A stretch of DNA of 64,000 nt from Candidatus Omnitrophota bacterium (GTDB lineage: Bacteria; Omnitrophota; Gorgyraeia; Tantalellales; Tantalellaceae): the NCBI GenBank assembly GCA_049642065.1, contig JBAROK010000007.1, forward strand, positions 2,134 to 66,133, written 5' to 3'. The notes under the pieces are model-generated. The model had not been told where the DNA came from and ran no database searches. It saw nothing but the letters and a program-made list of their open reading frames with translations. Shown here piece after piece: positions 2 to 26,697 of this stretch. The translations under genes and the position numbers were made by a program. Positions within the stretch are counted from its first letter, which is position 1, and every line of letters starts with the position of its first letter.

Positions 2-3000
2 TCTGATTTCGATCAAAAGGTTAGGATAATTGGCGAGTGGCTGTTTCCCGCGATTAACGATGAGTTGAATAAGCTCGGCCTTGAAAATATTGAAGACGTT
101 GATGAGTTCGGTAATCAGGTAGTGAAGGAACGGCTGTTCAAGGAAAGAAAAGAGGCAGAGACCTCGGGGAGATTTAAAAGAGGCGAAGATGGGGAACTAG
201 CATTAGATGATACTTATGAGGAAGTAAAGGTTGTGAAGGAATTTTCCCAGATGCTTATGGATCTGGAAGCTGGACGGGTTACAGGCATTCAGCCGGGATA
301 CTTGATGTATATAGCCGAACTTGTCGAATATCTGGAAGGCAGCAGGCAGTTAAATTTTTATAGAAAAGGTACAATCGGTAATTTTAGGGTAGATGAATGC
401 ACGGTGCCTCTTAAGGGTGAGAACCATACTTTTTATGTGCTGAGGTTCCGAGATACCGGCAAGGTACTTTTTGGTGTAGCAGTTAAGGGTGATAAATGGA
501 TAAAGGTTAATGGTAGGGATGCAAACGTTGAGAATAAGCTCGGGAAGATCTATGAGCTCTTAAAGAGCGAGGGGTACACGCTGGTTGCTGAGTTAGCTGA
601 CTTCAAAATGGCTACAAGAGAAGAGCTCAAGAGCAGATTGGCGGAACTTACCGCACTGGCAAAAGACGAAGAAGTAGAGAAACGTTTTCCGATATACCAG
701 CTTGGCACAAAAGGAATCGAAGGTGGTTTTATACAGACACAGATCGCTTCACCGGGCAAAGTATTCGGAATAATCTCTATAGATACTCCTGGTAAGAAAG
801 ATTTACAGCAGGAATGGTCCTCAAAAATATATGTTCCGGGTAAAGGGTATATTGCTCCGGACGATACATCCAAGGCAAGCAAGGCGGCCGGTGCTATAGC
901 GGATTCAGGTGCTACTAATAATCATGCTAATATCACCTTGAGGCGTGAAGGTTTTGCCAGTGTGATAGGTATGGGGTCCCATCAGATGGTAGTGGAAGGG
1001 AACGTTATAAGGATAAAGTGTAACGTGCCGTCTACGGAAGATGTGATAAGGGGAAATGAAACTCGTACGATAAGACATTATAAGGAAGGGGAGGTCGTAC
1101 TAAGAGATGGCGACCTTGTCATGATAGATGCATCAGAAGATAGTTCTGACGGAGTCGTTGTTGCAGTGGGCAAAACGCAGTCAGAAGAGAAAGATTTTAG
1201 CGCCGAAGCGAAAGAACTTTTTGGTGTTCTCAGGGATATTGAACTGGGTGGTCCTCTCCAGGAGGGATCACAATACAGCCAGTTATATAAGCGAACTGTT
1301 GGGAGGATAACTGGTGCAGAGACGAAAATACGGGATATGCGTCTTCTGAACATGCGCAGGATCCTAAAAGACGCTTCAAGCGATAAAACTGTCAATCTCG
1401 CTAAGATGGTTGCCGAGATATTGATAGATACGAGCATGATAACCGATAGCGATAAAGCCAGAAGGACTCTGGAGACGCTCCTAAGAAGTCTTGACGATAA
1501 TGTGCGCGGTGAAGTGGAAGAGTTTATTAAGCTCCTTTTCGGTAAGAAGGTTTACCAGATAGAAAAAGAAATACATGCTGTGCTGGGGGAAGTAGGGATA
1601 AGTAATGTAAAGAAGAATCCGTCGTCCACGTTGCTGTACAGTAACACAGAACATATCCTGCTTGAGATCCGCGATCTTAACGATAAGATGGCTTTGGTAG
1701 CGGAGATGATACCGGGCGTGGATTACGATCCAGGAAAAGGTCTATTTGCTGAAGAAGCGGATATCATCAGGAAAAGGTTCAACGAGGCGCTTGAATATCT
1801 TCGCAGCAAGAAGCTGGATGAGCTGAGTGCGTATCATAGCGAGTACAGGATAGCGGAGATCGAACGTATCCTGAAAGCAGCTGATATTAATGAAGAAAAG
1901 TGGATAGAACTGAGCGATGAACTCGAGACGCTGAGGAGGACTTCAAGGGGATGGATGTTAGACAAGATCGAACGAGACCTAAGTAAGGTCAGAAGGGATA
2001 TTATAAAAGCGGAATGTCTCGGATGCGATCTTTCAAGCCCAGAGATGCTTACGCTTCAGATGGAAGTCAATCGTATGGTAGCTGTTGCTAACATCAAGAC
2101 GATGAGACAAAAAGGGCCGGGACGTTATGTTATAGACTTAAGTGAGCTGGGCAGCATATACAGGCAGGTTGCCGGGAACAAAGCTGCTGAGGTAGCTGAA
2201 GTGATGAAGATATCCGAATCTGCAGACAGCTATACTTACAGGACCGATTCCGGATTGACAGAGATAAGAAATATATTAAAAGACGGATTTGATCAAGTGC
2301 CTAGCGGGTTTGTCATAAGTTCTCTTGCTGTTTACAGCGTGATACAAGAAAACAGTGCTATTCGTCCAGATATAGAGGCGCTGATTTCCGGCAATGTGGC
2401 TCCTGAAGAAAAAATAGAGAAGTTAACGGAACTGTTGCTTGCCAAAGGAAAAATACCGGAATTTTTGAAAGAGATGATAGCGGAGAAATATAGTTCCATG
2501 GCAGGTGAAAGCAAGGAGCCTATAGTCATAACACGATCTACATCCCAGATGGAGGACCTTCTGGATGAAACAAGGCCCGGCGTTAGGAAAGCCGGTAAGT
2601 ATCTGTCCTTTGAATGCGTTAAGGGCATCGACCAGATAAAGAAGAACATATTTAAACATCTGGCACATTTCTGGGTAACAGAAGGAGATGTAAACGACCT
2701 TCATCCTATCCTAGTGCAGGAGATGCTTTTTGACCTGCATTCGTCTTTCGTGGCTAATTCAGTGGATTCTGCGGAAAAGAACTGGAACGTTGCGAACATA
2801 GATGCGGTGCTCGGATTGGGCAGGGGTGTCGTAGAAGGTGGGGAAGGTATAGCCATACATACCTTTAAGGCGGATAATGAGGGAAGGATAACGGGGCGTA
2901 TCGTGCCTCCCCATAACAGGATGTGGGCTCCCGCACCTTCCGGAATCGGTATCAAGCTGGTAGATGTGCCTGCGGAAATGAAAGCAGCTAGAGCTCTAAC

Positions 3001-6000
3001 CGAAGAACAGGTAGCGAAAATAGCAAAACTTGCACGTGCGTTCCAGAAATATTACAGGTTTCCTGTCAATATAGAGGGTGGTGTAACAAAAGACGGGAAG
3101 ATAGTTATATTCCAGGTGAGGCCTGATTCAACGCTGAAATCAAATTCATACAGCATGTCGGGGACCGGTATACACAGCCCGCCTGTAGAAAAAATTATAG
3201 CGCTCAGAAAACAGTATCTTGCCGCTGAAAATCCATCCGCGGAAGAACTGGGCAAAGTAGACCCCGCCGCTATATCGGAGCTGATAGATACCAACATAAA
3301 CGAATTATACCAAGCAAGAAAGTCCGAATCCGAAGTAAGAGACCTTGAATATAAACTGGTCGAGAGATTAGTTCAGTTTAAGGGTTACCATTATGACAGG
3401 GCCCGTGAAGTGGTAATGGACCTTAGGTTATACCACAGGCGCTCCGATGTGGTGGACAAACTGGACGAACTCTTCTTTGAGGAGCTAAAACAGATATTAA
3501 GAGAACGGCTGTTCGAAGAAGGGGAATTCAACAGGGACAGGGAAAAAATATCTTATTTTGTTGAGAATTTTCATAACTTGCAGGAGATCAGAGAGGGTAA
3601 AGATATACCGAATGGTAATCTTTTCAAGAGTAAACCGGAATACAGAGATGCGGTTATAACCTGGGAAGAGAGGATAGACCGGTACGCTTACAGGTATTTC
3701 ACCAACAAGGTAGCCTGGGATACAGCGAAAACTAACGCCGAAAAAGTCATATTTAACAATGTTCTGGTGAGGCATTTATCTGAAAAAGCGAAGGGTGAGA
3801 TGTATGCTTTTATAAGGTATCTCGTGCCCCGGCTTTACGAGAACATACCTCCTTTGAAACGGCTCAGACGCCCGACAATAGTTCTTATAGGCGGTACTAC
3901 TGCCAGCGGTAAATCCACTTCCGCCAGGTCTGTCGCTAAGAACCTGGGTATGCCGTATTATTTCTCTGCCGATCCTATAAGGGAAGTGCAAAGAAAGCTC
4001 ATACCGAAAGATACTAACCTGTCACCGGCTGACAAGCGGTCGAGTTTTCAGGAAGATCCGGCAGAAAAAGGGTTTATAGAACACGGGTCAAGCGTAATAA
4101 GGTCACTTAATGAATGTGCACGTTGGGCTGTCAATGAGAACAGGAGCATGGTAATAGAAGGTGTTCACCTTATCCCTGGACTTATAGATCCTAAACTTTT
4201 TGAAGAGGCGAACGTGGTGCAGATCATCGTGACAGTCGCCGACGAAAAAGGCCATGCCGCCAGGATAGAAAAAAGAGGTAAGGAAGAATCGGGAAGAGGT
4301 GGCGCTGGAAGATATCTTAAGGATTTCGATAAGATACGCAAAGCGAACGATCTTTTTGATGAACAGGCAAGGTCTCACGGCGTTGTAAGGGTGGATAATA
4401 GCAGCGATTTCACCCGTACTATCAGTGAAGTTCTTTTTTACGCGGCTGGTCCTTACAAAGATAAGGCGAAACAGGGACCGGATGAACGTTTACGGGCGAT
4501 GCTTGACAATAAAGTAACTAGGGAAAAAGTAAGGACTTCTTCCTCTTTAGGTAAGTATGTAAAGTCAGTGTACACGCTGGGAGAAAGCGACAAATTATAT
4601 ATCGATGCCAGTGAAATAGAGCCGGGAGTAATCGATAAGTCTGAAATAGAGGCTTTAAGGAATGCCATAGTCCAGACCACCTCAAGCGGTGCTCTGGTTA
4701 TAAGGGATTTTGACCGCCTTGTTGCCGAAGGCCGCTCTCTATTAGATTTTGCTGCCAGTATAGGTTTTGATGATGTGATCATCGGACAGGAAGCACTGTT
4801 CGCGCGTACCGCTAAAGAAGTAGAACCGATACTACAAGGGTTAACTGCGTATGCCGCTGAGCTTAACGTAAAAGTGCTTATAGAGAACCTGCCTACTACC
4901 GGTAATGCCGAGATATCCATTGGACTTAAGGACGCATACGGAAAAGGCGTACAGGATATTGATATGGAAGCGATAGTGCTTGCGGACGAAAATGGCGAAC
5001 CGGCCGGTATGATAGAAGACGGTGACGCCGTGTTCTTTGCCTGTAAACGCGGTGAGAGGGAGATACAGATCACGCTTCCCTTTGTCGCGGAAAAGATCGG
5101 CCAGAAATTCACGGACCTTGTAGTGAAAACATACGAGAAGATCAAGTTCGGGATAATGACACTTTATCACGACATGTTCGATCCGCTGCCAGTTGCGTTC
5201 AGGCCGATGAGACAAAAAGATCCGTTAGTAGACGTTTTAAGTGGCGCGGGCAAGAGATTCCTTCTTTCTGCCGAATCCGAGAAGATCAACCATATCACAT
5301 ATTTCTTCAAGGGGCAGTCAAGGGAGCCGATGGAAGGCGAAGAAATCTTCAGCGTAGATTCGCCTCCTAAAGATGAGCACCTTGACAGGCCGGAACTTTC
5401 TTTGCCCGCGCTTACTAAAGGTATTACTGAAAGGATGGAGACGGGCAATTTTGATTTCGTCGGTATAAACCTGGCTAACTGTGACGTTATCGGGCATTAT
5501 TACGATCCTACGGATGTAGAGAAGAACAAAGAAATAATCCAGATTAGACGCGAGGCGGCCGAAGCGGTTGATGAACACCTGGGGATACTGTTAGAGGCCG
5601 CAAAGAAACAGGGGTATTCTGTTATTGTTACCGCTGATCACGGCGTGGGAGAGGTAGCGGTAAAGAAAGGCAAGGGTGTCGGTAAACATACTACCAACCT
5701 GGTCCCGTTTATCGTGGTTGACCCGGACACTACAAAGGCGAGTGTTATTTCCATAGCTGAGACCGGAAGGCTTGGCGACGTGGCGCCGACGGTACTGGAT
5801 CTAATGAAGATGCAGAAACCGGAAGAAATGACGGGACAGAGCCTGCTCGTGGATTATCCTGAAAACGCTGATCCCAAAAAAGTTATGCTTATAGTGATGG
5901 ATGGTTGGGGTATAGGCGCAGAATCTGAAGATAACCCGATCCATATAGCTAATACACCTGTTCTGGACAGTCTTTACAAGGAATATTTGAACACTCGGAT

Positions 6001-9000
6001 AAAAGCGTCCCAGGAAGAGGTAGGGCTCCTTGCCGGTGACAGCGGTAATTCCGAAGCCGGTCATCTTAATCTCGGAGCGGGAAGAATAGTTTTAGGGGAC
6101 GATATAAGGATTGTCAATGCTGTTAAGGGTGAACCTATAGAAGGCGATACTACACTTGATGAGAACGCCGCGATACTTGAGACGATAGCTCATGCGAATG
6201 AACACGGTTCCAATCTTCACTTGATAGGACTCTTATCTGACGCAAGTTCGCATGGAAGGGTCGCCCATGTGCTGGAACTGCTCAAGCTTGCCAAGAGAAA
6301 AAGAGAAGAGTTCCGTGAGGAAGGTAAAGGTGACGGATTTAAAGAAGTCTTTATGCATATGATAACTGACGGCAGGAGCACCGAATCCGGTACTGCGCCG
6401 GTACTACTGCTTGATATGCAGAAACAGATGTCAAGGATAGGTCTTGGCAAGATCGTTGACTGTGTAGGCAGGAACCTTGCGCTTGACAGGGCATACAACT
6501 GGGGCAAAACGAAAAAAGCTTACCGGTTATTTGCCATGGGTGAAGGTAAACAGGTAGGTCCCGTGGGGATAGCCGAACAGCTTTTAAGAGATATACCGGA
6601 ACTTGGTGTCGCGTACAACTGGGATAACCATACCCTTAGCGGTGACCGTCCTGGTTTTGTGGGCAGTCTTGACGTAAGAGAACGGGTGGGCGCGATATTC
6701 GTCACTGATACGACCGTCAAAGACGAAGAGAAAAACATATTTGGAGCATTCGATGGCCATGGGGACATACCTTTCTTTGTCTATAGGATGCCGAAAGCAG
6801 CAAAAACACCCGAAAAGAAAAAGGAAGAAGAAACTATCTTAAGCGCTGAGACAGCTCAGGCCATTATTGATAAGTGCCAGGATAAACTTAAAGCTACGCG
6901 TAAGTCCCTTGAGGCTATACATGCGTATCAGTACCAGAGGGTAGTCAAGCTAGCGGAGGATCCAACCCTTCATTTTGATAAAGCACGAAAGAACCTTAAC
7001 GGCCTTTTTGCTGAGATCGAAAAAATATTAAACAGCCCTGACCTTGAGAGAAGGCAGAGGAAAGAAGCGATAAGGGCTCTTATGGAAGGGTTTATCGGGC
7101 TCTTCGGCTGGCAGACGATACAGTCAGTAAGGGAACATCTGGAAAGAGATGACCTGCCCGTAGACATACTTGACGGTGTCAACACTTATGAAGACCTCAA
7201 AAACGCTCTCAACGAGAACGCGAAAGTTAATATACCCGATGAGAAGATAGTCAATTACAGGTCAAAGATTACCCGAAGAAATATAGAGATGCGGGAGCTT
7301 GCTATTGAATATATCGAACTTGTTGAAGAGCAGAAGCGGCTTTATAACGAAGAACGTGAAGCGATACGGGAAGCTTACGTTGAAATTACCGGTGAAGAGC
7401 TAGTCGATGAGGAGAAGCTGCATGTCGCGGCAAGAAAAGCTTATCCGGAATATGTGCTGGACGTTCCGCATCTAAAGGATACGGATAAACCTACTTTTGT
7501 TAATGTTGCCGGAGTGATGGGGGTTAATAGCGCTGATGTGGCACATGCTATAGCCGAAAGGTCAGGTATCCCCTCTAGAATGCATTCTGGGATGCTGCGA
7601 GGAGTAATATCCGGGATATGGCCGGAAGATTTTATCAGCGCGACTGACAACTTTAATATCGGCAAAGATATAAAAGATGCGTATGTCAAAGCTTTTAATA
7701 AAGAAGCAAAGGCTGCATTAGAGGTTATCCTGACCGGTGAAGGGAATATCTCCAGAGCTGAAGCTGAAGCTATCCTGAAAAAGTTTGCCGAAAACTGGAA
7801 ACAGGCGATCCTCGAGCCGATTTACAGTGACTGGGTCAGGCTAACGAACCAGGGTACCAAACAAGCAATAAAGAGACTGCTAAAAGAAAAGTCCAGTCAG
7901 GTTTTTGTGGGAGTCTTCCCGGGTCTTCTTGATCCTGCGCATCATGAGGACGCGAATATCGTAAGCATTATAGTTAAAGTGGAAGATATCAATGAGCATT
8001 GGGACGGGTTCTTAGTTTCAGCAAAAGCCAGAGGAGTGGATAATCCATCAGACTGTATGGCGGAATTTTTCGCTAACAGAATACTCCAGGATCACCTGAC
8101 AGATTTGGGCAGGGACCTGATCCTGCCTGAAGTCCGTGAAACAGCTGTAGTTGACAGTTCTAATATGGAAAGTGCCGTCAGGAATGCTGTTAACAGGGTA
8201 ATCGATCCCATTGCAGATAGGTACGTTGAAGTGCCGAACGAAATAAAAGAAAAAGCAGAACTAGAAGAGAAAGTAGTTTTAGCCAAATATACCGAAGCAT
8301 GGGTAAAGTATTTAAAGATCCCTCAGATATCAATAGCATGGCTCTTAGGTTGGGCCGTTTTGAGATCGGTTTCTCCGGAAGCCGCGATAGCGTTCAGTAT
8401 AGCTTCGATATTTGGCGTTATATTCATGGTAATCGCCTCAAAAGACAGGTTGTTCCTGGAAAAGGCCGTGGCTAGCGCGGTTCTTGCTGTAGGGGTTTCT
8501 ACTTTCGTGCCAGGATGCTCAGAAGCGAAAAAAGACCCCAGGCCGGAACCAAGGCCGAATGCTGCGGCTGCTTCAGATGGAGACAAACCGGGCAATAAAG
8601 AATCGCAGGAGAAACCCTTCGAGATTAAGCCCGGCGAGAACATACCCGCCAGGGACAGAAATAAAGAAAAGAAGCCCAGTGAAGATACAATGAAAGCCGT
8701 AAGCGGTCTTATAGATAATGTGCTGGCACATACCGATAGGGACAGGACCGAAGATTACAGGAAGAACGCGAAGTTCCTGATGATCATGACGATGATGGTA
8801 GAAAGCGATCAGTTTGCCAGTTCCGTCCAGTACGGGGGAGGCCCCGCCAGGGGGCTGGCACAGTTCGAACCTGCGACGGCAAAATATGTGCGTGATCAGG
8901 TCAATAAACTAACGGAGAATAAAAGGTTCAAAAAAGCTCTCCAGGTCACTTTCGGCGAGAAATGGGAAGAGAAGATATTTGGCCTATCATCGGAAGAGAT

Positions 9001-12000
9001 CATCCGTAAGATGGAAGAGAAGCTTGAAGAAGTCAAAAAAGAACTGGCGGAAGCCGAAAAGAAAGAAGATCTTGAAAGAATGTTCAACAGGAAAGACGAG
9101 ATGGTGGATTTAGAAGAAGCGCTTGGGCGCCGCGGGTTAAGGACGTTCTTTATGAATTGGCGGTTCAGGATACTGATAATTAAAGCTCTCGGTGCGGACT
9201 GGGGATCTGTCAGCGCGATGAACGGTTACAGGATAGGGCAGGAACTTGCGCGTAACGATTTCTTTACTGTTATCATGACCCGCATAAATTATTTCAGGAA
9301 CCGCAATCCGATTCCGTCTCGCACGGATATTGGAGCTGTATATAGATATTATCTGGCGACATGGAGACCCGGAAAACCCGTTTCTTTCGAGAGGTTCAAG
9401 AGGCTTGTTAAGGTAGTAGAAGAGAGCGGTGTAATGAAAGAAGCGGTCATAGAAAAAACCGCAGCTAAAACATCTGATATAGCCGCGGACCAAAGAGAAG
9501 ATGCTCCTGCACGGATGGAGGCTAGACGCCGTCCTTGGATAGTTGTTCTATTCGTATTGACTGCTTTATCCGCTTTACTGTTCTGGATAACGTATAAAAA
9601 GATGTTCGAAAGTTTTCTTAAGAGCGCCAAACAGGGTACTGTCTTCAAGATGGACCTTTTCACCGATATATTCGACAGAAAAGATCTCCTGCGTAAGCTG
9701 GTAGCATCTGGTAAAGAAGTTACCGTGGGCAGGATCCCGGGTACGCATAAATATCTTTTCCGCATGGGAGACAAGAAATATACCACAACGGAGCTTGGCG
9801 AAGAGTATGCCGAGTACATCCCCGAAGGGCACGTTCATCCTGCAGAAGGCACAGCGGAGGAAAGAGCGAACGCTTTTATGCCGAGCGACCATGACCTGCT
9901 TAAATCCCATGGAAACTGGCGTTACATAGTTTCTGAGCTGGGAATCACCTGGTATGCGACTGACGGTGCCGTTATTGAGACAGCAATAGAGGATTACGCG
10001 ACGTTCTGGCATTCTGCCTGTCACAGGTCCCTCGATTCCATCAAGAAGATGATGGATGAGCGATTTGACGTAAAGATAGATTTTGATCAGATGGATCTTA
10101 GTAAAACGAAAACCCGTACGGGGAGATCTCTTTTGTTCGGGAAAACAGCACTGTCCGAAAAACCGGAACGCCCCTCAGGAGATGTGCACCCATTCAGCGC
10201 ATCAGAAGCTTATAAGGGCGTAGTTGTAGCTTTTGCTGTAAGCGTAGTCATGGCGGCAATGTTCGCATCCAAACTGGTATTCAATGGATTTGCGGGGTTT
10301 GATACTATTGCTACTATTAGTGCTATCGTCGGTATTTACTCCATTTTTACAACAGCGAGATATTATTTACTTGGTAAAGCCACGTATTATGCGCTTTTGG
10401 CGGAGGAACTTTCTCCTCGCCAGGCGCATGTCCGTGCGATAGCCACATCTGACGGCTGGCGTCATCCCGCTTTCCATAAACTTTTATCTAAGGAGAAAGA
10501 GATCATTGAAATCCATGAATCGTATAAGAACCATCTTATGGGCATGATAATGATAATGCCGGGGTTCCTGCTTGTGAATTTTCTTTTAAAGAGAGGTGTA
10601 ACTGAGATCGCGGATAGGGATGAAAACAGGGATAAGGTGGTTGAGCAGAGAGATTTCAGCAACCTCAGTGTGTATTTGAATAATCTCAGGAGCGAGAACG
10701 AACAACTGATATCTCCTGTACCTGTGATACGGGAAGTGGTAGAGGCCGGTTCAAGTCAGGTAAAGCAGCTCGAGGTGGGCAGGTCCGCGGAACTAGAGCT
10801 TAAAAAATCAAGGCAGGGACAGGCGGCAAGGGAAGAGCCTTCCCCGTCACAGAAGAAGATCGTGAGGAACTGGCGGTTCAGCGTGGAGCCGAAAGGGATT
10901 TTATACGGACAGGTAGAAGTAGAAGTGCTTGATAAGGTATCACAGGATGTTGTGAGCAAGGTGTATTTTCAGGATGCGCTGGAGATGATGAAGAATCTTG
11001 CCGGTGAAAGGCTCTTGTGGACTAATCCTACCTCAGCCGATAAGAGCAAAAACCTTCATTTTCACCTCTATAGGGAAAAAACCCCCTTGCCTGTAGAAAA
11101 TCATGAACTTGAACCATTATGCGAGGATAAAGATGGTGAAGGCGTCATATACACGGTCAAGGATTATCCGGACGAAGATCATCCCATAGCGGCTTTTGTG
11201 GTGAAGGGGACCCTTTCTCAGATCAATTTGATGAGCGCGAGGTGTTACGATATTGAAAAGATATTGCGTGCTAACGGTCAGACCGCCGATAAGCTTTTTG
11301 TGGAAGGGGAAGATGGAGAGATAAAAGTATATTTCTATCCCCGGAGAGCCGGTTACGCCAAGATATTTGATAGCGATAAAGCGCGTCGCCTGATCGGCCC
11401 GGTCTCGCTCAGCGGGTTATGGTCATTTGCTAATCAGAAGGATTATAGCCGTTTCACTAAGGAAGATCTGTATGGCGTACTGTCGAAAGTGGCGGTGCTG
11501 TACAAGAGCAGGAATTTTCAGAGGATAAGTGATGCCATAGTAAGGAATTTCCGCGAGGCGGAAGGTGCAGGCATACTCCCGCCCAGCGTTAGTTTCAGGT
11601 TATTTTCAGATTCACCTTTCGCTGAGGAAAGAAAAGAACCGGAAAACCTGGATGAAAGGATTCTTAGAAGGAAGAAAGTACTAGACGCTCTTTATGAGGA
11701 CGGAGTAAGAAGGGTCAACTTCACGTTTACTATCCCGACTGCCGGGATGGAGAGCGAAGACGAATGGATAATATTACAGCAGGCCCTAGAGCATGCCAAA
11801 TGGAAAGGCATGACTTCCGTGCTTTCAATACGCAATATAGTGCACAGGATCAGTGTTATTGAAAAGCAATGGGCACGCGTTGAGCAGTATATATTGCCAT
11901 GGGTGGATAAGATAAGTCTTAACGCTCAAGTGCAGAACGAGAACCTTGATAAGGCGTTACGTATTTTCGGACAGAATTGCAGCAATAAATCTATAGAGAT

Positions 12001-15000
12001 ATATACTTGTGTGAACGACCGGAACAAAGACAAAATTGAATCGCTTGCCAGGTTTATGCGGGAGTATATTGGTTCTTTTAATACGGTAGAGTGGGAGATA
12101 AGCAGGGAGAATATGGTCAGAGGCAATGATGCTATAAGCGAAGATGATTATGTCCAGTTGACCAGTAAGCTGAGAGAAGCGCATCCTGGATTACCGATTG
12201 ATTATGCCGTTTTAACAAGAGAAGAAACAAATCTCCATGTGTATAACGACGGTAAATTAGCTATAAAAGATGAGGGTGCCTTAAAGAATGTGGGAGACCT
12301 TTTCATCCCGGATACGCTTAAAGACAAGAGTAACCAGTCTGTTTTTCGAAGAATAACAGAGAATATCAGTGTGCAGTCTACTTACATACCGCGAAAAGAC
12401 GAAGTAACGGCCCTTCCTTCCACGTATGTGGCCAGTACCCGTGAAGAGTTTACGAAAGCGATAAATAAAATGCAGGCAAAGACACTTTTGCCTCATATAG
12501 AATGGGAAACAGAAGTTGCAGGCGCTATCGGTTATGTAATAGGAATGACAGACAAAGAGATAGAAATATTGGCTCTCGCCATACAGGCGCATCATCTCGG
12601 ACATATTCCCCGGGCAAAGAACAAAAAAGAATTCGAAAAAATGCTTGCCGTTCTTAAAAAAGCATACCCGCCGGACCATGACCTTAAAGGAGGCGAAGTA
12701 TGGCACATTAGAGACGCCATAAATAGATTGTTTGCTGCTGAGGGTGGCGAAGGTAAGACCGAACCGCAAAGATTCGATATATTTCGCGCAGAAATGGCTA
12801 GCCTTCTGGGTAAGAAGGACCTTACTAGTGACCAGAAAGCGATCGCCAGGTCGATGCTAGATTCAAAAGCGTATATGCAGGAAGTGCTGAAAGAGAACAA
12901 GATGAAGCTTCCAGCAGATTTAAGGATATTAACAGAATATTACGGCAGGCACGATAGGTATACTGAAGCTCGCTCCCGGGAAGAAGATCGGTTCAGGATG
13001 GAGCTATCCATAGACCCTGATAGAATGGCCAAACTGATAGCTATTTCCAGGATCGCTTCGACATTCGTTAACAGGATAGACGAATCGGTGCGTAGTCTGA
13101 GGGGAGAAGCGGGCGATTCTATGCCGGAAATAATAAGTTTTATAGTAGATAATCTCAAGAGAGATGGTGAAACAGGCGATAATATTCTTGAAGCTCTTGA
13201 TGGGCTTATTGCCCTTATCAGGGAACAGGATAGTACCATACTTTCAATAGCGAACCGGGCCAGAGGCGGGGATGAGGGACTGATGATTGCCAAATCAGAT
13301 AGGTCGTTCTTGAGGTTCCTTCAGAAAGGTGTTGGAAAGGTCAGAAACAAAAGACAGAATATGCGGATCATAGAATCGTTCAGACGCTATGAAAAAGGTA
13401 TTGTCGCTGAAGATTATTACCGATGGGCTATTGCAGCAGGGATCGTGAGTGGTTTTCTTGGTCTGATAAGCTTGTTTACGGGTTCGATGTGGGTAATAGG
13501 GGTTACCTGCTACAGCTTATGGGCTCTGGGGCGTTATTATTCCATAGGCAGGGATATTGAAAGAGGGACAGGTGCGGTACAACTGGATAAAGAACTCGCC
13601 AAAAAGACTCCTGTGGTCAAAATACGCCCGGATGGCTTACTTGAAAGGGATGAGAAGATATGCAAAAGTCTTCCTCCGTTTACCAACAGGATGCTTAAAA
13701 TACACGAAATTTTCGGGATGAGAATATCGGCGATGATATTCACACTTCCGATAGTAGGACGTATAATCACGAACACGTATGTCGAGATGAAACGGCTCAA
13801 CATGTGGATGGATTTCACGATACGAAAGAACCGGCCGCTTGTCACGTACGATGCTTTTAACCCAAGCCGCGTGAGGGGAAGAAGAGATCAAATGGACTTT
13901 GAAAATGGTTCGTGGAAGTGGAGAAGAGGTGACGGTCTTGCGCTTATAGCTGATATCGGGGATGACCTGAGGAGAAGGATAGAAGAAGTGCAGGAAGCGC
14001 TGAAAAAAGTAGTACCCGATGCCGAAAAACTTTTCTTAATGGAACCGGAAAGGTTGCACATAACCGTGGCAACGCTGACAAAAAACACTACCAGCGTTGA
14101 TACAAATCCAGAAAGAAGGGCAAAAAGGGAGTCCTTGATCAGGGAAACTAAGAGTCGCGTGTCTGCCTTAGGTAGTGGCGGGATAGAAGTCAGTTTTAGT
14201 CTTAATGATCTGACTATTTGGGATAATGGAGATATAGCTATACTGGGTAGGATGGAGAACCGGGGTTTAGACGAGATAAGAACCAGTTTAGACGAGTTTA
14301 ATTTAAGTGTTCATAAAAAAGATATAGTACACGTTACTGTTGGCAGGATATTTGATGAGGATATATCTGTCGATACGTTCAATGAAATAAGGGATGTATT
14401 AGAAAAGTTCCGTAACGGTAAAACCGAGGGTGATAAGAAGAAATTTTTTACGATGACTCCGGAGCTCTTTATCTGGGATCAGGCAGGGAAGACGGACGAC
14501 AAAAAGTACATACACATCCCGCGCACTAAAAAATCGGGCAGAGACAGTAAAAGACTGAGTAAGCTGGGCGAACCGAAAAGGCGCGATCTGAGTGGGGTCG
14601 CATCGAAAGAAACGAATCCTCTCATTGAGCGGCTTATTAAGGAAGGCAAGATAGTAGAGCTTTTTGAACAGAATGGCCAGCTTGACGCTTACAGGGTTAA
14701 ATGGGTTGAAGGATACCAGCCCGGCAGGGTGCAGGAAGAGGTGTTCGGTGAGGAAGTAGACGTGGATGAGATGTTCACAAGGTCGCAACAGGATAACATG
14801 CTCAGGTGGATGCGTCTGCACGGATTACCTGATAGTCGCGGCGGAGTGCATTTTAGAATAGCCCTCGATAACGCGGCTTTAGGCTGGACCGGAGACGAGG
14901 AACATTCCAACATAAGCCATGCAGGTTACCGCGACGGATGCATTTATATAGGTGAGCGTCTGCTCGCTTCCATATTTACCGACCCAGACGATCCATTAAG

Positions 15001-18000
15001 AAAACTTATACTAGATGAAGATGAGTACAATCATCTAAGAGACAGGGATTTTGATTGTCGTGCTGATAAAAGCAGATACGAAGCAAGACTGAAATCTGTT
15101 TTTAGCAGGGTAGAATCTATATTACGAGAACCTCCTAGAAAATATGATCTTTACCTGTGTACTTCGGACGAGAAAGCCGTATCCGTCTATGACGGTGAGG
15201 ACAGGGACAACCCCCAGAGCATTCATTGGGGCAATTTCATGCCAAGAGATCCTATCTATGTTGTGGGCAACATGAAGCCTGTAAAGGTTTCCGCGGGCCT
15301 TTATATAGCGAACGACTTTAACATAAGTTCTTCCAATATAAAGATGAAAGTTTGGATGGGGCCCGCTGATAACGTAAACAGGTGGAGCGAGATCAGGTTG
15401 GAACGTGTTTATACGAATGAGCTTGAGAAGGGTACAGAGTACCTGTTCGCCGGGATGTTACCCTCTTATTTTAAAGGAGACTTTACGTTCAAGTATTCAC
15501 TGGATGGCGGGAAAACCTGGAAATGGGCAAACCGAGGCGAGAATGATAACCGCAGGATAGAAAGAAAAAGGACTGATACGATAATCCATGAACCTATGGG
15601 ATACAGGGTGGACGAGAAGATAGTGACGCCTGATTACAAAAAACACAGAACGATACGCCTATACCAGGGGAACGAGGATCTCAGTGATATCGTAGACGCC
15701 GCCTCCAGCGCTGATGAATTTTTCTGGGGTAAGGGGATACATGATTCAGATAACGGCCATTCGTATTACAGGACTAACTTCGGGGCTTTAGAGTTCCGGT
15801 CCAGCGCAGAAGCAAAGATAATCCACATGGGCGATATTCTTTCTTCAGAGAACGAATACGAAGGGCAATTGCTTATATATTACGACGATATACAGAACGC
15901 TATAGTTATGAGGGTGAACAGCAATCCTGGTGAGGCGTTAGAACACGATGCTGTATCGGATCCACAGGAAAGGAAATGGAACAGGGCTGTTATAACTATA
16001 CCGTTGGACCATGAAGGCCGGGCGAAGCGGGTGGAGCACGAGCAGACGGTTATGGGCATATCGCGAGCGGGATTATCTATCCTGCTCAGGCACGCGGGAA
16101 TCAACAGGAAATTTCCAAAACTGTTCCGGCTGATCCAGCAGGAACTTGTGCTGTATCACGTGGACGATTACATGTTCTTGAAACACATGTATGGCAATGG
16201 CATGACGCCGGTTGAAGCGCTTAACACTGTGATGGATCATCCACAGAGTGTAAGTCCCGAGCAGATAAGTTATATAGAAAATATGGTCAAGTACACCAAA
16301 TCGCGTGTTCTTGGGCATCTGGCCTTACGTTGCCTCGGAAAGCTTGTTGATGAAGGGATGTACGATAGGGACGAATATCTCAAATACGCACGGTACACTT
16401 CTGAAAAAGACGTACTTGAAGGCATGGCTACAGCAGAAAGGGTCATAAGACAGGATGATTCCTTTTTGAAACAAATGGGCATTAACCCTGAAAAGGTTAA
16501 AAGCATATTTATGAGATGGTTCATTAACGGACCGAATAAAACGATCTATCGTGTTACCTGTAATATGTCAAATGGAGAGGAAAGGGTGTTCGCGATAGAG
16601 GTGAAATCTCCTCTGGGCTCAGCTCAGGGATACAGCATGCTGCAGATCGAGAACGCCATGCGCATATGGAAGAAGAAGAGCGATAAAGGATATGACTATG
16701 TGCCTCATGTTTTCGTCGTTAAGCGTGTAGACGATTACAGGCCGAAGATCCTTACAGCTCCGATAAAAGGTTTAAATATAGACAGGGAAGGCGAATTCCA
16801 TATTGAATCGCTTGATATAGAGTCTTCGAGAGTAGTGTATGATGACATTCTGGTTGTAGCGAGAGAATTCGTGGAAGGGTATCAGCTGCCGGATTACCTT
16901 GCTTACGGAACGGTTTCAGCAGAAGAGACGCGCAGGGCCACTGTAGCGGGGCTTAAGGCGTTTCTTAAATTGTGGAAGGACGGGCAGGACCCGGCTACAG
17001 GACGCGGACCTTTCCCGATGAGGCCTGCGCCGAGGGACGTTATTGTATATAAGATAGGTGAGACTTATCACGGTGTTGTCGCGGAGATGGACAGCCTCCG
17101 GGAAGGTTTTGCCATAAGGGAAGTAATAAGGGCCTTACAGTCCTGTGGATATGACAAGAAGGACGTGATATCCGCTGCCAGGGAAGTGCTTGCTGAGAAT
17201 GAGAGAGCGATTATAACGGAAAATTATGGCAAATACAAGAGTGAAAGAGTAACGGAGATGTTCTTTGCCGCGGATAAAGGTTCTGAGCTTCACGCGGTAC
17301 AAACTAAGGGTATGGATGATGAGGACGCTCATCGTATAGCTGTCAAGATAGCAAATACCGCATATGAGTTAGATGAGGATAAGAAGAGAGCATCTTTCAC
17401 GAAGATACGCGGTGCACTCAGATATTTGTCAGAAAAAGTTAACAGGAATACCAACATACCGGATGACCTCAGGAAAAAACTGAGCTGGAAAATAGATATT
17501 TTCTTGCGTCAGAATTTCTGGCAGAACGTCAAATATTATCCGGTACGCGCAGGACGCGCAGACGTGTTTGAGATGCTGGAAGGGTTCGTAACGGATGGCA
17601 CTGTATATCTAGTTGAAGGGTTTATTGATGACCGTGATCTTTCCCGGGAAGAGAATATAGCCGGTGTGATATTGTACCAGATCCTTTCCGAGTTATGCAG
17701 TGAAGAGCGGATGGAACAACTTCCCTCAAAACCGGATTACTGGGATAGCGTGAAGGGGCCTGAAGGCGTACAGAACCTTATACTCGGGGACAGAGAAGAA
17801 TTCGAGAGGAAAATCGCGAAATACGCCCGTAAAGAACACATCAGGATAGCCATGGAAGATAAGGTGCTTGGCAGGAACCTGGTCACTTATCAGGGGCTCA
17901 AGAACCTGCCTGAAGCCAGGAAAAACGCGGAAGAGTTCCTTGAGACTATCTGCAGGATCATGGAAACGGAAAAGCCTGAGATCAAGGGTGACGAAGATCT

Positions 18001-21000
18001 GGCAGAATATCTACGAAAACGTTTCGGTGTGCGCAAATTCGTCATAGGTGGCGGTAAAGGAACGCGTTTTTCTCCTGAAGGTATCATGGTGAAACAGCTG
18101 TTCAAGCCCGATAATTATAACACTAATATCAAACAGTCCAGGATATCCTCAGCCTTTGGTATGCTTGAAGATGTTATAGTCGTTGACGCTATAACAATAT
18201 TCAACCTTTTGCACCAGGATAAGGAACTTTTGGCTGAACATAAAACCACGATGTTCTTTAACGTCAGGGAGAATCTTGTCAACCTGATGGACTCCGGGTA
18301 CATCAATAGAGAGCAGTGTAAGGAATTAGTAGGGAAAATAAAGAACATAATCGACAATGAATTGGTCTATACGCACCGTTCAGACCATCTGCGAGATCTT
18401 GGTTCAGCGATGGAATCTGCGGCAAGAGCAGTTGAGGATGTTCTCGGGAAAAAGAATGAAAGGGCCCAGTTCGTTACCGATAAGATATCATATGCGGTGT
18501 TCAAGGTTATTATGGCTATTGGGGAGGAACTTATCGATGAGAATAAGAAGGACGAACTTTTCGGTAAGAATTGTATTGTAATACTAGATTCTGGAGACGG
18601 CCACGGAAGTGCCTATGTGGAAGCTCTGAGAGCCCTTAATTACAGTGGCAAGCTTGACCAAGCAAGGTATTCCGTTATAGTTCATGCCGATTCACCCGGA
18701 TGGGGTCTCGATGAATATCCAAATTACGTATTCATATCATATCTGAAGACGGTAAATACCGTTTCACCGCAAGTACAGGATATGCCCAAAGTGACAATAG
18801 CGGCTAAGAACCCTAGAGACAAACGTGCGCAAGGACGTGCCCGCATAGATACCATTACGGTTGAAAATGTTGGTGAGGTTCCCGTGGGTGTAAGGGAGTG
18901 GAACGAACTGAGCTACCAAGAGAAAAAAGAATCCAGAGAAAAAGCCAAGGCCCAGGATCCGACATGGTTCACCAACGCGAACATACTAATATGCGACACG
19001 ATGTGGGCCTACGATAAGAAAGATGTTTTAGAGAGCGAATACAGGCATGAATTGGGTCGTATGGGCAAGATGAAACGCCGTCCCGCGGAATACTGGAGCA
19101 GCGATTACCTTAATATTGCTGCCAGGGAATATCTGCAACTTATCAAGAAAGATCCTGAAACTGCACCTTTAACGCGGCTTGTATTTATCGGTCAAGACGC
19201 TCCTAATGCCAACAAGACACTTGGCCGGGCTCTTGAATACAGGGATGCCTTACAGAAAATGATCCTGAGAAAGATAAGAAGAATGGGCGTAGAAGTTGAT
19301 AAAGATACAACGGTGGCTATATCCAGTACTGATGTAGGCCCGAATTTTGATCTCGATAAGATAATAGAGGATATCTTTGGGGATAACCTTGAAGGCCCCG
19401 CTAAATTCGGTAACACGAAGCTGAGGGGCGCTATACATCTTGACGCTACGGTAGTTGTGCAAAAAGGAGCTATCCTGGACGGCAGGAAAAAAGATGTTTC
19501 TCTTACGGGAAATTGTGTAGTCGAGAGAGGTGTAGAGCTGCATGGTGTGGTCAGGGCAGATTATCTTTTTGACAAGAACGAGCTTCTGCCGACCAATAAG
19601 TTCTATATAACAGGCAGACAGTTCCGGGACAGCACTACCGAAGCGACAGTAGTAGATAACGTTGATTTCAGGGAACTTGGCCTCATAGTGGACGATCGTA
19701 CAAGGATATGGATAGCGAAAAAGGATAAAGGCGAGAGCGATCTTAGCGTACTGAAGAAAATATTCGGAAGCGATCACCCTGATAGCGGCAGGGTCACGGA
19801 CCAGATATTTGTGTACGGGGATGTTGTGCTGGACAGCACGGTCAGGGTGGAGAACGGTACGATGCTTGACGGTAGGGTTGATGAAGTGATCCTTGTCGGT
19901 GACACGCACGTGCATAAGGGAGTTAACCTCAAGAGCGTCAAAGCTAATGATACAACTTTTGCCGGCTGGAGTGATCTTGACATTTATCATTACAGGCAGC
20001 CTACTCATGACGGAAATGTAGGTATACGCAACTCGGAATTTGACAACTCTTACATAGAGATCCGCGCGGAGGTCATCAACTCGATGATACGGAATTCATA
20101 CGTAGCCAACGGAGCTATGGTAGAGGAATCCGATGTGGCTGATGAAGTTGTCGTGAACGGAGAAGAAGTACGGGACAGGCGCTTAAACAGGAAGGATGAT
20201 GCGTTATCGGTATCGGTAACCGCAGAAGAAGACGGCAAGGTCAATTACATGCCCGGAGCTTTCCGGCTAGAGGAACTTCCCAATGAAGATATAGAAGATA
20301 TACTCGGTTATCAGATCAAGTCCGCCAGAAAGCTTTATATGAAATTCATCTCGGATCCGATCCTTCTCGAACGCATGGTCCAGGAAACCGAACAGTTCAT
20401 ACGCAGCAGCGTGACACCTCGCTTTACGATACAGCAGATCCGGCAGTATCTCATAGCTAAAATAAGGGATAATTGCGACAAGGAACCGGATGTCAGCAAG
20501 TTCCGTCCGCTTGTGGAAGACCTTAGGGCACACGCTAAGCTATGGATGGCCAATGCGATTGAAATTGACATTAATGATGAAGCAGCATCAAAAGCCTTTT
20601 TCAAGGAACTGAGCATACTGGCTACACGCGCTAATTTCATAGATTTTTCAATAGATCCTAAAATGTTCGATATCGACCAATTGGTGGAGACGGATGAAGC
20701 GCAGAGGAAGAAGTTTACCGATCTTGTCGATGAGTTTGCCGATAGTGATCTGGCGATAGACGGTTACAGCGAGTTTGAAAAGATGGTGTTCAGCCCGGAA
20801 AAGGGCGTTTTCCTTTTCTTTACGGATAATATCGGTGAAACTGAGATCGATGCGGTTATGTGGGAATTCCTCGCGCGTATGGGGCATACCGTAGTTATAG
20901 CCGCAAAAGACGGTTTCTCGTATGCTGATATAGACGTTAAAGGTGTCGAAGAAACGGTGAATGCACATCCTTCGCTTTGTAAGCACAGGGATGAAGGCAG

Positions 21001-24000
21001 GATAAAGGTTATAGCAAGCGGGTCTATGTCAGAAGGAGTGTTTCCCCACAAGTTCAGCGACGAAGTCCAGGATGTGCTGCTTTATGGCACTAAACTTAAG
21101 GGCATAATCGCTAAAGGACAGGCGAACCTGTTCACGCTTTCGGCCCGGAACAAGATCAGCGTGCCGGTAGTGGTAATGTGCCTGTCTAAATCCAGGACGT
21201 CGAAAAAGATAACGGGTATAGATATAAAAGAGAATGAAGACGGCAGTAAACTGTTTCCTCCGATGATAGCGGTAGTGCCTGCGGGAGAGAATATCGCTAA
21301 CTGCATCGGAAGAGGCGTATTCGGAGGAAAATTAACGCGTTTTGGCAAAAAAGATGAGGGTGACTCTAGCACAGGCGATACACACGCTTTTACCGCACGG
21401 GACGGCATGAGATGGGCAAAACGGTTTTTAACTGGAGCAGCTTTATTTACTGTTGTCTCAGCAATAGCGGCTATAGGCTTTGTTCTGCATCTGGACCACT
21501 TACCGTGGGGTTTTGTAATAATCTTTGCCGGGGTAGACGTGGTGCTTGCAATGATCTCTTTGGAGTATTATCTTCTTGGGAAGGAAGCTTATAAGGCAAC
21601 GGTTAAATATATTTTTGAAGGCAGGGATTCAAGGGATATGCTTGAGGAAGATGCCGTTTCACAAAAACAGGCTATGGATACAAAGATTGCGGAACATCAG
21701 GCGAACAACATCATAAAATATCATCCGGCTTTCAGGTATCTTTCAGAACATGCTCAGGAAGCCGTAAAGATACACGAGTCGTTTGCGAGCCACAAGTTGG
21801 GCATGTTAGCCATGGTACCTGTGCTTGGTAGGATACTGTGGTTGAAACTGAGAGATGTGCATGACAGGGATATGCTCATACACTCCGATTATTCTAATAT
21901 AGAACAGGTGTTAAGGACGCAGCTTGAAAGAAACGTGGATACTGAGTTCCTGAAAGAAGCTTACCGAAAAGGAGCGAAGGAAGAGCCGATAGAAGGGTCT
22001 AGGATCCTTAAGGTTACTGACCGTTCGGGAGATCCTGATATTAAACGTCAGCAGGGATTCCTGCGGTATGAGCGTACAGTCAACAAAAGATGTACGTTCT
22101 GTAATATCCCGGACCTCTCAACAGAAGTCCACAGGTCAAAGACAGCAGAATGGGCTTTTTCAGTCGAACCGTCTCCGGTATTCAGTTCGCAGATGATAGC
22201 GATAAATTCAAGGCACATAGACCAGGGTACCATGGGGCCGGAAGTTTATTATGACATGTTCCAGATGCTTAAGAATCTTAAGGGATGGCAGATGAGCTGG
22301 CCCGGCAGGCTTAGCACCAGCCATCCGGATCATTTTCATGTCCATATGTTCGAAAGAGACAAGAACTCTCCGGTCGAAGAATACGATATGCAGCCGATAT
22401 GCAGGGACAGAAAAGGCGAAGGTGTGGTTCATTTGATAAAAGACTATCCCGACAGGGACCATGCTATAGCTGCTTTTGCCATAGCAGGGAGCATCAGGAA
22501 CGCTGCTGTATTCGCTAAAAGATGCGCTGACCTGGAAGCAATAATAAAGAGCGCCGGATATGAGGTAGACAAATTCATCACTAAGGGCGCGAATGGCGCG
22601 ATAAAGGTGCTTTTCTATCCGAGGACCGCTTCTTACATGAAAATAGGGCCCTCAGGCCGCGGGAGGTTAACCGGGCCTATTGAATTGAGCGGCATATGGG
22701 TGACTCAGGATGAGAAAGAAAGAGATGCGTTCAGCCTCCGGGATGTGCATGATATTCTTTCAAAGACCACGCTCAGGCTTTACAGCGACAGTTTCCAGGC
22801 ACTTGAGGATCAGATAAAGAGACATTTTTATGAAGCTGAGGGGATAGGCCTTTTACCGTCCAGTATGGATCTCATGGTAACGAATAAATGCAATTTGAAC
22901 TGCCCCGTTTGCTGGGGATCTTACATGCCTAAGCACAGGATATTTGCTCCGGATAACGCTGATATTGAGTGGGTGGATTTCAAGGAGAAAAAGATAAAGT
23001 ATCGTGGCACCGGACAGGAACGGGTGGAGAAGTTCGAGGATAACCAGAAAACGGCTCATGAGCTGGAAGTGATCAGGAGCAAGCTCAGCATGTACTATTG
23101 CACAGAACCGGAATCACCCGAGATAGAGCATATAAGGTTCTTTAGCCTTGCCGGTGACGGTAAGAAGGTAGAGAAGGTCACCGTCAGGTTCACTGAGGGC
23201 AAGACCGACAGTATGGCGCTCGGCAGCGACGAATATAATGATGCAGTTCTAATGGTTCAGAAAAAGATGATCGATGTCATGCATAAGAATGGTATGCGCC
23301 GCATGGTGTTCACCGGAGGAGAGCCTTTACTCGAAGATAATCTCGCGGAACTTTTAAAGTACGCTAAAGAAAAAAATATAACGACATGGCTTTTTACCAA
23401 CGGCCTTCTGATGGACGAAGAAAAAGCGGACCAGATCATGCCGTATGTGGATATGATATCGCTGTCTCTTGACGGTCATGATGACGCGACGAACTCAAGG
23501 AACAGAAAACCAGGTCATTTTGTTGCGGTGCTAAAAGTCCTTAGGATATTAAGCCGCAAATATCCCGAGAAAGAAGTGCAGATACTTACCGTTGTTACGG
23601 AGAGGAACAAAGCATATATCCGTAAGATAGGGTTCCTGCTCAGGCAGGTTACCAAGGGCCTTAAAAGTTTCCAGTGGAAACTTAATTATTACAAGCGCAT
23701 AGGCCGGTCACAGCACGAGAGAGACATAAAGAACGACGTATTTCTAATGGAGTATGGTAAATTCGTGAGCCTTGCAAAGTCCGTGCAGAAGGAGTTCACG
23801 GATATCAAGGTACGATACAGCCCGCCCGACCACGATAAGGCGTATTTATTTGTATTTCCTGACGGTACATTGTCAACGACGGTAGGCCCGGAATATCTGG
23901 AACTCGGCAACATACTTGATGCGGATACGCTCAGGGAGGAGGATAACCTTAAGATATTCAAGACCATAACCGACAATATCCGCAAACGCGCTATCTATAT

Positions 24001-26272: not shown

Positions 26273-26361
26273 TTCGCAGGTCCCGTGGGCTGCATGATTT
26301 GCGGCTCACGAAACCTGCGGGTTATGGTTAAAGTTCTACTTGGAGGTAGGACCAGGGATAG

Positions 26362-26390
26362 CAGGGAAGCAGCAGCTTCCCTGTTATTTT
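26362..26390 (+). terminator. Rho-independent terminator of gene 1.
   Basis: Perfect 9-bp GC-rich stem CAGGGAAGC (26362-70) / GCTTCCCTG (26375-83), loop AGCA, followed by TTATTTT (26384-90). Lies ~90 nt after the TAA. Confidence 0.7.
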
Positions 26391-26432
26391 GCCCCATAAG
26401 TTAGGGTAGAAAATAGTTAGAATATAGGTTAT

Positions 26433-26460
26433 TGACATGGACGTGGGAAAGTGTTATACT
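26433..26460 (+). promoter_or_regulatory. Sigma70-type promoter P1 upstream of gene 2.
   Basis: TTGACA (26433-38), 16-nt spacer, TATACT (26455-60) with an extended -10 TG at 26452-53. Confidence 0.55.
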
Positions 26461-26610
26461 GTATCTACGGTTGAGGAATTAAAAAGCTAGGATTGGTTGG
26501 TTTTAAATGGTTGGGTTAAGAATTTGACGATGTGAGGGAGAGGTAGTAAAGGTTGGGGAAAGCAACAAAGTGAAGAAATACACTACTGGTTAAGGGTTAA
26601 AAAAGGTAGA

Positions 26611-26640
26611 ACATTCTAGTTGATAAACATGCTAGAATGT
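26611..26640 (+). promoter_or_regulatory. Candidate operator: perfect 9-bp inverted repeat overlapping promoter P2.
   Basis: ACATTCTAG (26611-19) and CTAGAATGT (26632-40) are exact reverse complements with a 12-bp spacer. The repeat spans the -35 of P2. Confidence 0.4.
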
Positions 26641-26648
26641 GGTATCAT
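26620..26648 (+). promoter_or_regulatory. Sigma70-type promoter P2 upstream of gene 2.
   Basis: TTGATA (26620-25), 17-nt spacer, TATCAT (26643-48). Overlapped by a 9-bp inverted repeat. Confidence 0.4.
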
Positions 26649-26693
26649 TTAACTATTAGACGATAAAAAAGCCAGAAGGGTATATAAATAGCG

Positions 26694-26697
26694 AGGA
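26694..26697 (+). promoter_or_regulatory. Shine-Dalgarno for gene 2.
   Basis: GAGG ~8 nt upstream of ATG 26706. Confidence 0.5.

Follow-up and report, generated by a model that had tools for sequence, protein, structure and literature searches.

A predicted circularly permuted phosphoglycerate mutase-type domain within a giant protein of a Candidatus Omnitrophota bacterium

The stretch of DNA analyzed here, hereafter the window, comprises 64,000 nt of Candidatus Omnitrophota bacterium (assembly GCA_049642065.1, contig JBAROK010000007.1, positions 2,134–66,133, forward strand), and two giant plus-strand open reading frames (ORFs), 65..26272 and 26706..63335, make up nearly the whole of it. Within the first of these, ORF1, nucleotides ~4877–6565 very probably encode a complete, circularly permuted phosphomutase domain of the cofactor-independent phosphoglycerate mutase (iPGM) type, inherited from a clade of stand-alone permuted proteins and situated inside a giant Omnitrophota protein. 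iPGM, a textbook enzyme of two domains, is also a target for drugs against parasites and bacteria. In the initial annotation, a permuted iPGM with a retained duplication footprint had been placed at 4850–6800, which corresponds to about amino acid residues (aa) 1596–2245 of ORF1, all aa coordinates being counted from nt 65. The motifs quoted there are all present at the place given and in a single reading frame, and the minus-strand ORFs beneath the region do not exceed 230 aa and are contained in the giant frame.

In a phmmer search against all PDB chains, aa 1621–1929 aligned to residues 220–510 of 1EJJ, the iPGM of Geobacillus stearothermophilus (138.6 bits), and aa 1938–2162 aligned to residues 4–211 of the same chain (135.9 bits). 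Alignment to the Geobacillus enzyme had been named beforehand as the check on the permutation, and it gave two complementary halves without overlap rather than two complete independent copies. The C-terminal half does precede the N-terminal half, as first described; the boundaries proposed (~250–511 followed by 1–~300, with a breakpoint at ~250/300) have to be replaced by 220–510 followed by 4–211, which puts the break within the transferase domain, at reference ~211/220. Identity to 1EJJ, half by half, is roughly 30–40% in the phmmer alignment and 31–32% by Foldseek. ORF1 has both an alkaline-phosphatase-like phosphatase domain and an iPGM_N transferase domain, and lacks the canonical order, in which the transferase domain is inserted between the N-part and the C-part of the phosphatase domain. 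Accordingly arranged matches were seen with profile models: PF01676 (Metalloenzyme, 157.5 bits) and PF06415 (iPGM_N, 114.9 bits) each match in two stretches of swapped order, and TIGR01307 likewise matches in two out-of-order stretches, which only when summed (359.8) pass its equivalog cut-off of 330.65. The parts of the domain and the tail that follows it, all on the plus strand, are:

4877..5224, plus strand: transferase-domain part B (aa 1605–1720, about reference 212–310), holding R1662 and R1665 (R261 and R264 of the reference)
5225..5851, plus strand: phosphatase-domain C-part (aa 1721–1929, about reference 311–510; PF01676 profile positions 73–251), holding K1740, D1807, H1811, D1858, H1859, and H1875
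5852..5875, plus strand: linker DYPENADP (aa 1930–1937, 8 residues), leading from the ancestral C-terminus to the ancestral N-terminus
5876..6094, plus strand: phosphatase-domain N-part (aa 1938–2010, reference 4–76), holding D1946, the nucleophile S1996, and H2000
6095..6565, plus strand: transferase-domain part A (aa 2011–2167, reference 77–~215; PF06415 profile positions 7–131), holding H2063, R2104, S2105 (replacing D154), R2136, and R2142
6566..6814, plus strand: tail (aa 2168–2250, 83 aa), a lineage-specific extension or linker without detectable iPGM homology

In this arrangement, the phosphatase domain (reference 311–511 plus 1–76) is contiguous, which bears out what had been proposed from the motif order, and the transferase domain is built from both ends of the chain. 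The linker is 37.5% conserved in an orthologue of the giant protein (locus L007, CAZMEZ010000021.1; 71.6% identity to ORF1 over aa 1–2790), as against 81–85% for the flanking enzyme parts. In iPGM, the phosphatase domain is joined to the transferase domain by two hinges (PMC5382265), and both inter-domain hinges are kept in the permuted domain. Judged by these alignments, the ORF1 domain is a true circular permutation of iPGM.

Conserved equivalents were found for D12, S62, H66, H123, R153, R185, R191, R261, R264, K336, D403, H407, D444, H445, and H462 of the reference. The metal site and the Ser nucleophile (D12/S62/D403/H407/D444/H445/H462) correspond to D1946/S1996/D1807/H1811/D1858/H1859/H1875, while H123/R153/R185/R191/R261/R264/K336, which we take from 1EJJ to be the substrate-binding basic residues, correspond to H2063/R2104/R2136/R2142/R1662/R1665/K1740. 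In a 78-sequence family alignment the metal ligands, the Ser nucleophile, and the equivalents of R185, R191, R261, R264, and K336 are invariant. Since all tested catalytic residues are intact, the domain is probably active; catalysis, metal use, and substrate identity are what we infer from its sequence. The domain thus has the same two domains, metal ligands, Ser nucleophile, and substrate-binding Arg, His, and Lys residues as the known iPGMs (GpmI/GpmM; 1EJJ, 1O98, 1O99), and differs from GpmI in being permuted at ~211/220, in the replacement of D154 by Ser together with M189L, N259C, D263E, and A24P, and in lying inside a giant ORF instead of forming a protein of ~510 aa.

An AlphaFold2 model based on the 78-sequence alignment had a mean predicted local distance difference test score (pLDDT) of 87.8 and a predicted template modelling score (pTM) of 0.84. 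Blocks of 10 residues within aa 1615–2165 average 83–99, mostly >90, and part B scores >85 beyond its first 10 residues. The structure prediction that had been called for thus returned a confident fold, in which the geometry of the metal site is a predicted one. Foldseek searches of this model against the PDB gave iPGM structures only (E about 3e-15, ~290–340 columns, target TM about 0.48); every match covers about half of the model and no solved PDB chain aligned over the whole, as is expected when a sequential aligner is given a permutant.

The chain runs from transferase part B (212–310) through the phosphatase C-part (311–510), the 8-residue linker, and the phosphatase N-part (4–76) to transferase part A (77–211). 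By inference from iPGM, two divalent metal ions would be held by D1807/H1811/H1875 and by D1946/S1996/D1858/H1859. The phosphate of the substrate would pass to S1996 and, once the substrate had reoriented on the transferase domain, back to the neighbouring hydroxyl. The permuted module itself would have been recruited from a stand-alone form to its present place between two 2-phosphoglycerate-kinase-like domains and downstream of a module resembling phosphoenolpyruvate (PEP) synthase.

Permuted homologues are common among the relatives of the domain. Collinearity with the query, over ~540 residues, was seen in 115 of the best 120 database clusters. Each of these 115 is permuted when compared with 1EJJ, and all of them except P0001, a partial protein of 971 aa that is 99% identical to ORF1, are stand-alone proteins of about 510–570 aa. 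A genome scan with one genome per species, using the peptide RRGERE[IV][QE]L plus GNSEAGHxN, gave 452 candidate loci; 79 of the best 80 are stand-alone permuted genes, and these 79 species-level genomes belong mostly to Anaerolineae/Chloroflexota and Oscillospiraceae/Clostridia, with one from Sphaerochaetaceae. With clustering at 50% identity, the best 150 representatives comprise 131 canonical sequences, 16 permuted ones of full length, and three fragments.

For phylogenetic analysis the sequences were un-permuted and aligned, and neighbor-joining (NJ) trees were built. A main permuted clade of 20 sequences, including ORF1 and its orthologue, was recovered in three runs with bootstrap support of 60/60, 99%, and 100%, and ORF1 is nested in this clade and not basal to it. 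It also shows the hallmark of the clade, which is the C-half followed by the N-half, a break at ~211/220, and former termini joined by a short linker. Since ORF1 is nested among stand-alone permuted proteins, the sequences indicate that the permutation predates the giant gene and that the giant gene acquired an already-permuted module. A permutation in situ, as the initial annotation implied, does not agree with this position in a pre-existing clade, and acquisition of an already-permuted module makes it unlikely that a footprint of the original event would be retained in ORF1.

The stand-alone homologues MBQ1406423.1 (Oscillospiraceae) and HCS40006.1 (Anaerolineaceae) share the order, the breakpoint, and five clade-specific residues with ORF1, at 42–45% identity across the whole domain. 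They differ from it in being proteins of ~525 aa that usually have HAD genes upstream, whereas the ORF1 copy is fused into a giant protein and followed by the extra tail of 83 aa. Both are annotated as ordinary iPGM. NCBIfam holds no model specific to the permuted proteins, and annotation pipelines label them ordinary iPGM because the profile score sums the two out-of-order stretches. Permuted sequences are already public under the ordinary name, and the clade is widespread and has apparently gone unnoticed; in the full-text literature searched, including evolutionary surveys of phosphoglycerate mutases, no description of a circularly permuted iPGM was found. Such permuted forms are a natural experiment on how far enzymes built by domain insertion tolerate re-threading of their chain.

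The main clade is further set apart by its substrate pocket. At five positions that are 88–98% conserved in canonical iPGMs it carries clade-specific residues (A24P, D154S, M189L, N259C, and D263E), and ORF1 has all five (P24, S154, L189, C259, and E263). Four of the five changes flank or fall within the substrate-binding motifs DGRD, MDR, and NFRPDR. Ser is found at position 154 in 80% of the main clade, and a search of the literature on the role of Asp154 gave nothing usable. Given the remodelled pocket (D154S, M189L, N259C, and D263E), the substrate may be 2- or 3-phosphoglycerate or a related phospho-acid.

Gene context was compared in the 79 stand-alone loci, with a span of 6 kb for homologues of ApgM, TIM, and PGI, and four loci were inspected in detail. 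One to five HAD-hydrolase genes occur in 74 of the 79 loci, directly upstream and on the same strand in the inspected ones. An ApgM-type mutase lies within 6 kb in 28 loci, being one or two genes downstream in those seen in detail, and kinases of the PRK family (26 loci), a PfkB-like protein of 296 aa (31 loci), and an RpiR regulator (20 loci) recur as well; an ABC transporter was present in two of the four inspected loci. Such neighbourhoods do not resemble that of a glycolytic gpmI. By residue changes and gene neighbourhood taken together, the main permuted clade has probably diverged in function, and this likely divergence (pocket changes plus a gene context without the tested glycolytic genes) means that the wrong gene may be credited with a glycolytic step when the metabolism of Anaerolineae, Oscillospiraceae, and others is reconstructed.

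The cluster recurs in a regular form (L001 1–17417; L003, L005, and L009–L019), with one to five tandem TIGR02253-like HAD hydrolases, the permuted gene, and an ApgM-type mutase that passes the NF003160 cut-off, followed by one or two proteins of ~400 aa of the PRK/uridine-kinase family, an RpiR regulator, and a PhnS2/AfuA-like ABC transporter. In Oscillospiraceae loci, the 296-aa PfkB-like protein is the downstream partner instead. ApgM (TIGR00306, PF10143) belongs to the same alkaline-phosphatase-like superfamily as iPGM and has the same annotated activity, but its cap domain is different and its similarity to the window domain is weak (E 8e-7). Homologues of the HAD, ApgM, PRK kinase, and RpiR proteins gave no phmmer matches in the two giant ORFs.

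Several observations weigh against reading nt ~4877–6565 as a complete, working mutase domain taken over from the stand-alone clade. At position 154, in the DGRD motif, the domain has S2105, whereas Asp is conserved there in 98% of 132 canonical sequences. That the metal site assembles and the two transferase pieces dock is predicted by the model, as judged from pTM and pLDDT only. A TIM or PGI homologue was found within 6 kb in none of the 79 stand-alone loci. Finally, aa 1673–1720 and aa 2203–2249, that is, a stretch of part B and one of the tail, show a marginal Smith-Waterman similarity (shuffle p = 0.0035) that is not fully explained.

The first and third of these points bear on function, and a realistic, though doubtful, explanation is that the domain is an ordinary glycolytic mutase interconverting 3-phosphoglycerate and 2-phosphoglycerate, in which merely the chain order differs and the pocket changes are neutral. 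This would agree with the conservation of the nucleophile, of every metal ligand, and of the basic residues that bind the substrate, and with a TIGR01307 total above the cut-off. It would further agree with the existence of a second permuted lineage (P0136 and P0408–P0410, 83–85% mutual identity), which has the same breakpoint, canonical pocket residues, and a position next to pgi. These proteins are 47–53% identical to canonical enzymes, while P0136 is 38% identical to the window domain. At its start, their gene shares 8 nt with the end of pgi (L087 8001–9626; L088 8001–9638), to which it is translationally coupled, and the other neighbours are the housekeeping genes trpS, scpAB, pheA, aroA, and cmk. 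A canonical pocket beside pgi suggests that the permuted topology is compatible with ordinary phosphoglycerate mutase function and that the ordinary enzyme can have a permuted chain. For the main clade, to which ORF1 belongs, an unchanged function is opposed by the five fixed replacements, four of them in substrate-binding motifs, at sites so conserved in canonical enzymes, and by neighbourhoods in which HAD genes and ApgM-type mutases take the place of nearby TIM or PGI genes. Clusters of this composition make plain mutase activity uncertain. In locus L087 of the second lineage there is, in addition, a gene for a protein of >3057 aa that contains many AAA domains.

The two permuted lineages need not share one origin. 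Monophyly of all permuted sequences appeared in 1–3% of NJ bootstrap replicates, while the second lineage itself was supported by 100%; splits with canonical sequences on both sides had no support >24%. Permutation at the surface loop of reference ~211–220 may have happened repeatedly. A further candidate lineage, P0127, was set aside because it is a partial protein on a contig of 1,520 nt and could be the middle of a longer mosaic, of the kind described next, or of a tandem fusion.

Five proteins of ~720 aa (P0002, P0004, P0007, P0009, and P0010; also locus L006 1336–3519) have the order N-half, C-half, N-half (N-C-N). Their first N-half and middle are canonical-like, with 47–60% identity to 1EJJ, and their last N-half resembles the main clade (57–66%); the C-part is of the canonical or the main-clade type depending on the protein, and at least two different crossover positions are present. 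P0004 adjoins TIM. From these affinities, the N-C-N genes appear to be mosaics of a canonical iPGM gene and a permuted gene of the main clade, with chimeric assembly as an alternative, and they are natural forms of the kind predicted by the duplication/truncation model of permutation. iPGM domains also occur in other large proteins: P0162 (5027 aa) contains a permuted domain at aa 3851–4374 with canonical pocket residues, and P0181 (2349 aa) contains one of canonical order at aa ~890–1436. Only the iPGM part is shared between these two proteins and ORF1; the kinase-like modules are not.

We consider it unlikely that the domain has lost catalysis and persists in the giant protein as a structural relic. 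Degenerate modules may occur in ORF1, as the second 2-phosphoglycerate-kinase-like domain, described below, apparently has no P-loop. Against a relic stand the tested catalytic residues, every one of which is intact except D154, and the conservation of the domain in the orthologue, at 81–85% compared with 61% for the spacers.

Still less probable is that the permutation arose within ORF1 by tandem duplication and truncation, with the ~250–300 segment kept at both ends as a footprint. The order of C-half and N-half is what such a model predicts, and the similarity between the tail and part B noted above (p about 0.003), which only one of 409 control segments equalled, would fit with it. That match, however, was not replicated in the 72%-identical orthologue, where the tail was compared with the protein's own N-terminal part (p = 0.165), and it gave no signal at the DNA level and was not seen by hhalign. 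The two halves, 220–510 and 4–211, do not overlap. A family HMM (hidden Markov model) of reference 205–310 scored 112 bits on aa 1600–1725 and -1.7 bits on aa 2150–2300, hhalign gave the tail a probability of 0.2%, and comparison of the tail with 1EJJ 220–312 gave a Smith-Waterman p of 0.55. The motif pair on which the claim of a repeated ~250–300 stretch was based, DGDAVFFACKRGERE and GAIFVTDTTVKDEE, is similar at chance level only (Smith-Waterman p = 0.35). DNA-level repeats that would support a duplication of the tail were not found, nor was an N-half remnant upstream, in aa 1440–1620. The stand-alone family members, among which ORF1 is nested, share the breakpoint and end at the equivalent of ORF1 aa ~2167 (median), without a tail. 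The retained footprint is undetectable at either end of the domain, and family HMM, hhalign, orthologue tail, 1EJJ 220–312, and DNA level together speak against the tail as a duplication remnant; as far as sequence comparison goes, it is not one. It has the features of a variable segment, with 63–74% identity in the orthologue, near the 61% of the spacers and below the 81–85% of the enzyme parts, and a pLDDT of 60–68 that falls below 50.

That the order is an artefact of misassembly, or of two partial copies of a tandem array read through, can practically be dismissed, since the 99%-identical P0001 lies on an independent NCBI contig, the orthologue (72% identity) keeps this order within a single open frame of 13.9 kb, and the order recurs in 115 of the 120 best clusters and in stand-alone genes of 79 species-level genomes.

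The permuted domain has several neighbours in ORF1 that are related to the metabolism of phospho-acids:

851–1021, plus strand: weak match to the PEP-utilizers mobile domain (aa 263–319; PF00391 E 0.0011, below the Pfam gathering score)
2294..3142, plus strand: PEP-synthase/PPDK-like ATP-binding domain (aa 744–1026; PF01326 E 8e-25, NF005057 E 3e-23)
3836..4441, plus strand: 2-phosphoglycerate-kinase-like P-loop domain #1 (aa 1258–1459; NF003259 E 1e-35, PF13238; Walker A motif GGTTASGKST)
7829..8242, plus strand: 2-phosphoglycerate-kinase-like domain #2 (aa ~2589–2726; NF008994 E 1.5e-13, a partial match)

Domain #1 scores 123.6 bits against an NF003259 cut-off of 343, has an intact GKST, and is 89.6% identical in the orthologue. 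Domain #2, which follows the mutase domain beyond a region of about 230 aa, scores 50.1 bits against an NF008994 cut-off of 603, and its match is confined to the C-terminal part of the family; a P-loop-like stretch upstream of it (GVMGVNSADVA) is without GK[ST], and the P-loop looks degenerate. Because the mutase, 2-phosphoglycerate-kinase-like, and PEP-synthase-like modules all act on C3 phospho-acids, this common substrate class suggests a coupled function. The giant proteins of Omnitrophota recruit ready-made enzyme modules, in this case a mutase between two kinase-like modules for the same class of C3 phospho-acids.

A broader reading, offered tentatively and rather unlikely to hold in all its parts, would combine these observations. 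The main clade would be a functionally distinct phosphomutase family with a remodelled pocket, encoded in operons with HAD phosphatases and kinases, and the domain of the giant protein would be coupled to the 2-phosphoglycerate-kinase-like modules in the synthesis or consumption of a bisphosphorylated C3 acid. The loop at ~211–220 would possibly have been permuted more than once, and the N-C-N mosaics would reflect ongoing recombination between canonical and permuted genes.

The remaining features of the window are its large-scale ones:

2..26272, plus strand: giant ORF1, listed as 65..26272 (at least 8735 aa from a TTG), with a frame open to the 5' edge of the window
26273..26705: spacer of 433 nt between the giant ORFs
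26706..63335, plus strand: second giant ORF (12,209 aa)

From nt 2 to its TTG (nt 65), the frame of ORF1 contains no stop codon, and since the frame is open to the edge of the window, the true gene start lies upstream of it. The orthologue, which has the same arrangement and is open across the entire 13.9-kb locus, remains open for at least 392 aa further upstream. P0001 is named 'Candidatus Omnitrophota bacterium', on its separate NCBI contig. The metagenome-assembled genome that holds the orthologue is labelled 'uncultured Planctomycetia', whereas P0001, the near-identical fragment of ORF1, is labelled Omnitrophota, and the GC content is 0.54 in the orthologous locus and 0.46 in the window; one of the two labels may be wrong. 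In the first 10,000 aa of the second giant ORF, SecA_PP_bind and P-loop_SecA were the only Pfam matches (aa ~2718–3058, nt about 34857–35879).

The name 'Archaeovorins' has been given to giant proteins of Omnitrophota in which PPDK domains abound (bioRxiv 10.1101/2023.11.21.568195). ORF1 resembles these in being an Omnitrophota protein of several thousand residues (at least 8735 aa) with PPDK_N, Radical_SAM, and HD modules. The main text of that study and that of a 2026 Omnitrophota survey (10.64898/2026.06.07.730766) contain no mention of a phosphoglycerate mutase, a Metalloenzyme domain, or a permutation. Hydrophobic stretches are visible in the ORF1 translation, and aa ~7734–7952 (about 23264–23920) match the radical SAM model NF038283 of the prokaryotic viperin family (E 2e-20, below the cut-off). 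The region aa ~3324–4001 resembles aa ~7101–7598, both having hydrophobic stretches and a DUF4922/HIT-like part followed by radical SAM/HD-like parts, and a single stretch of the orthologue matches both; this likeness suggests an internal duplication of these modules in ORF1.

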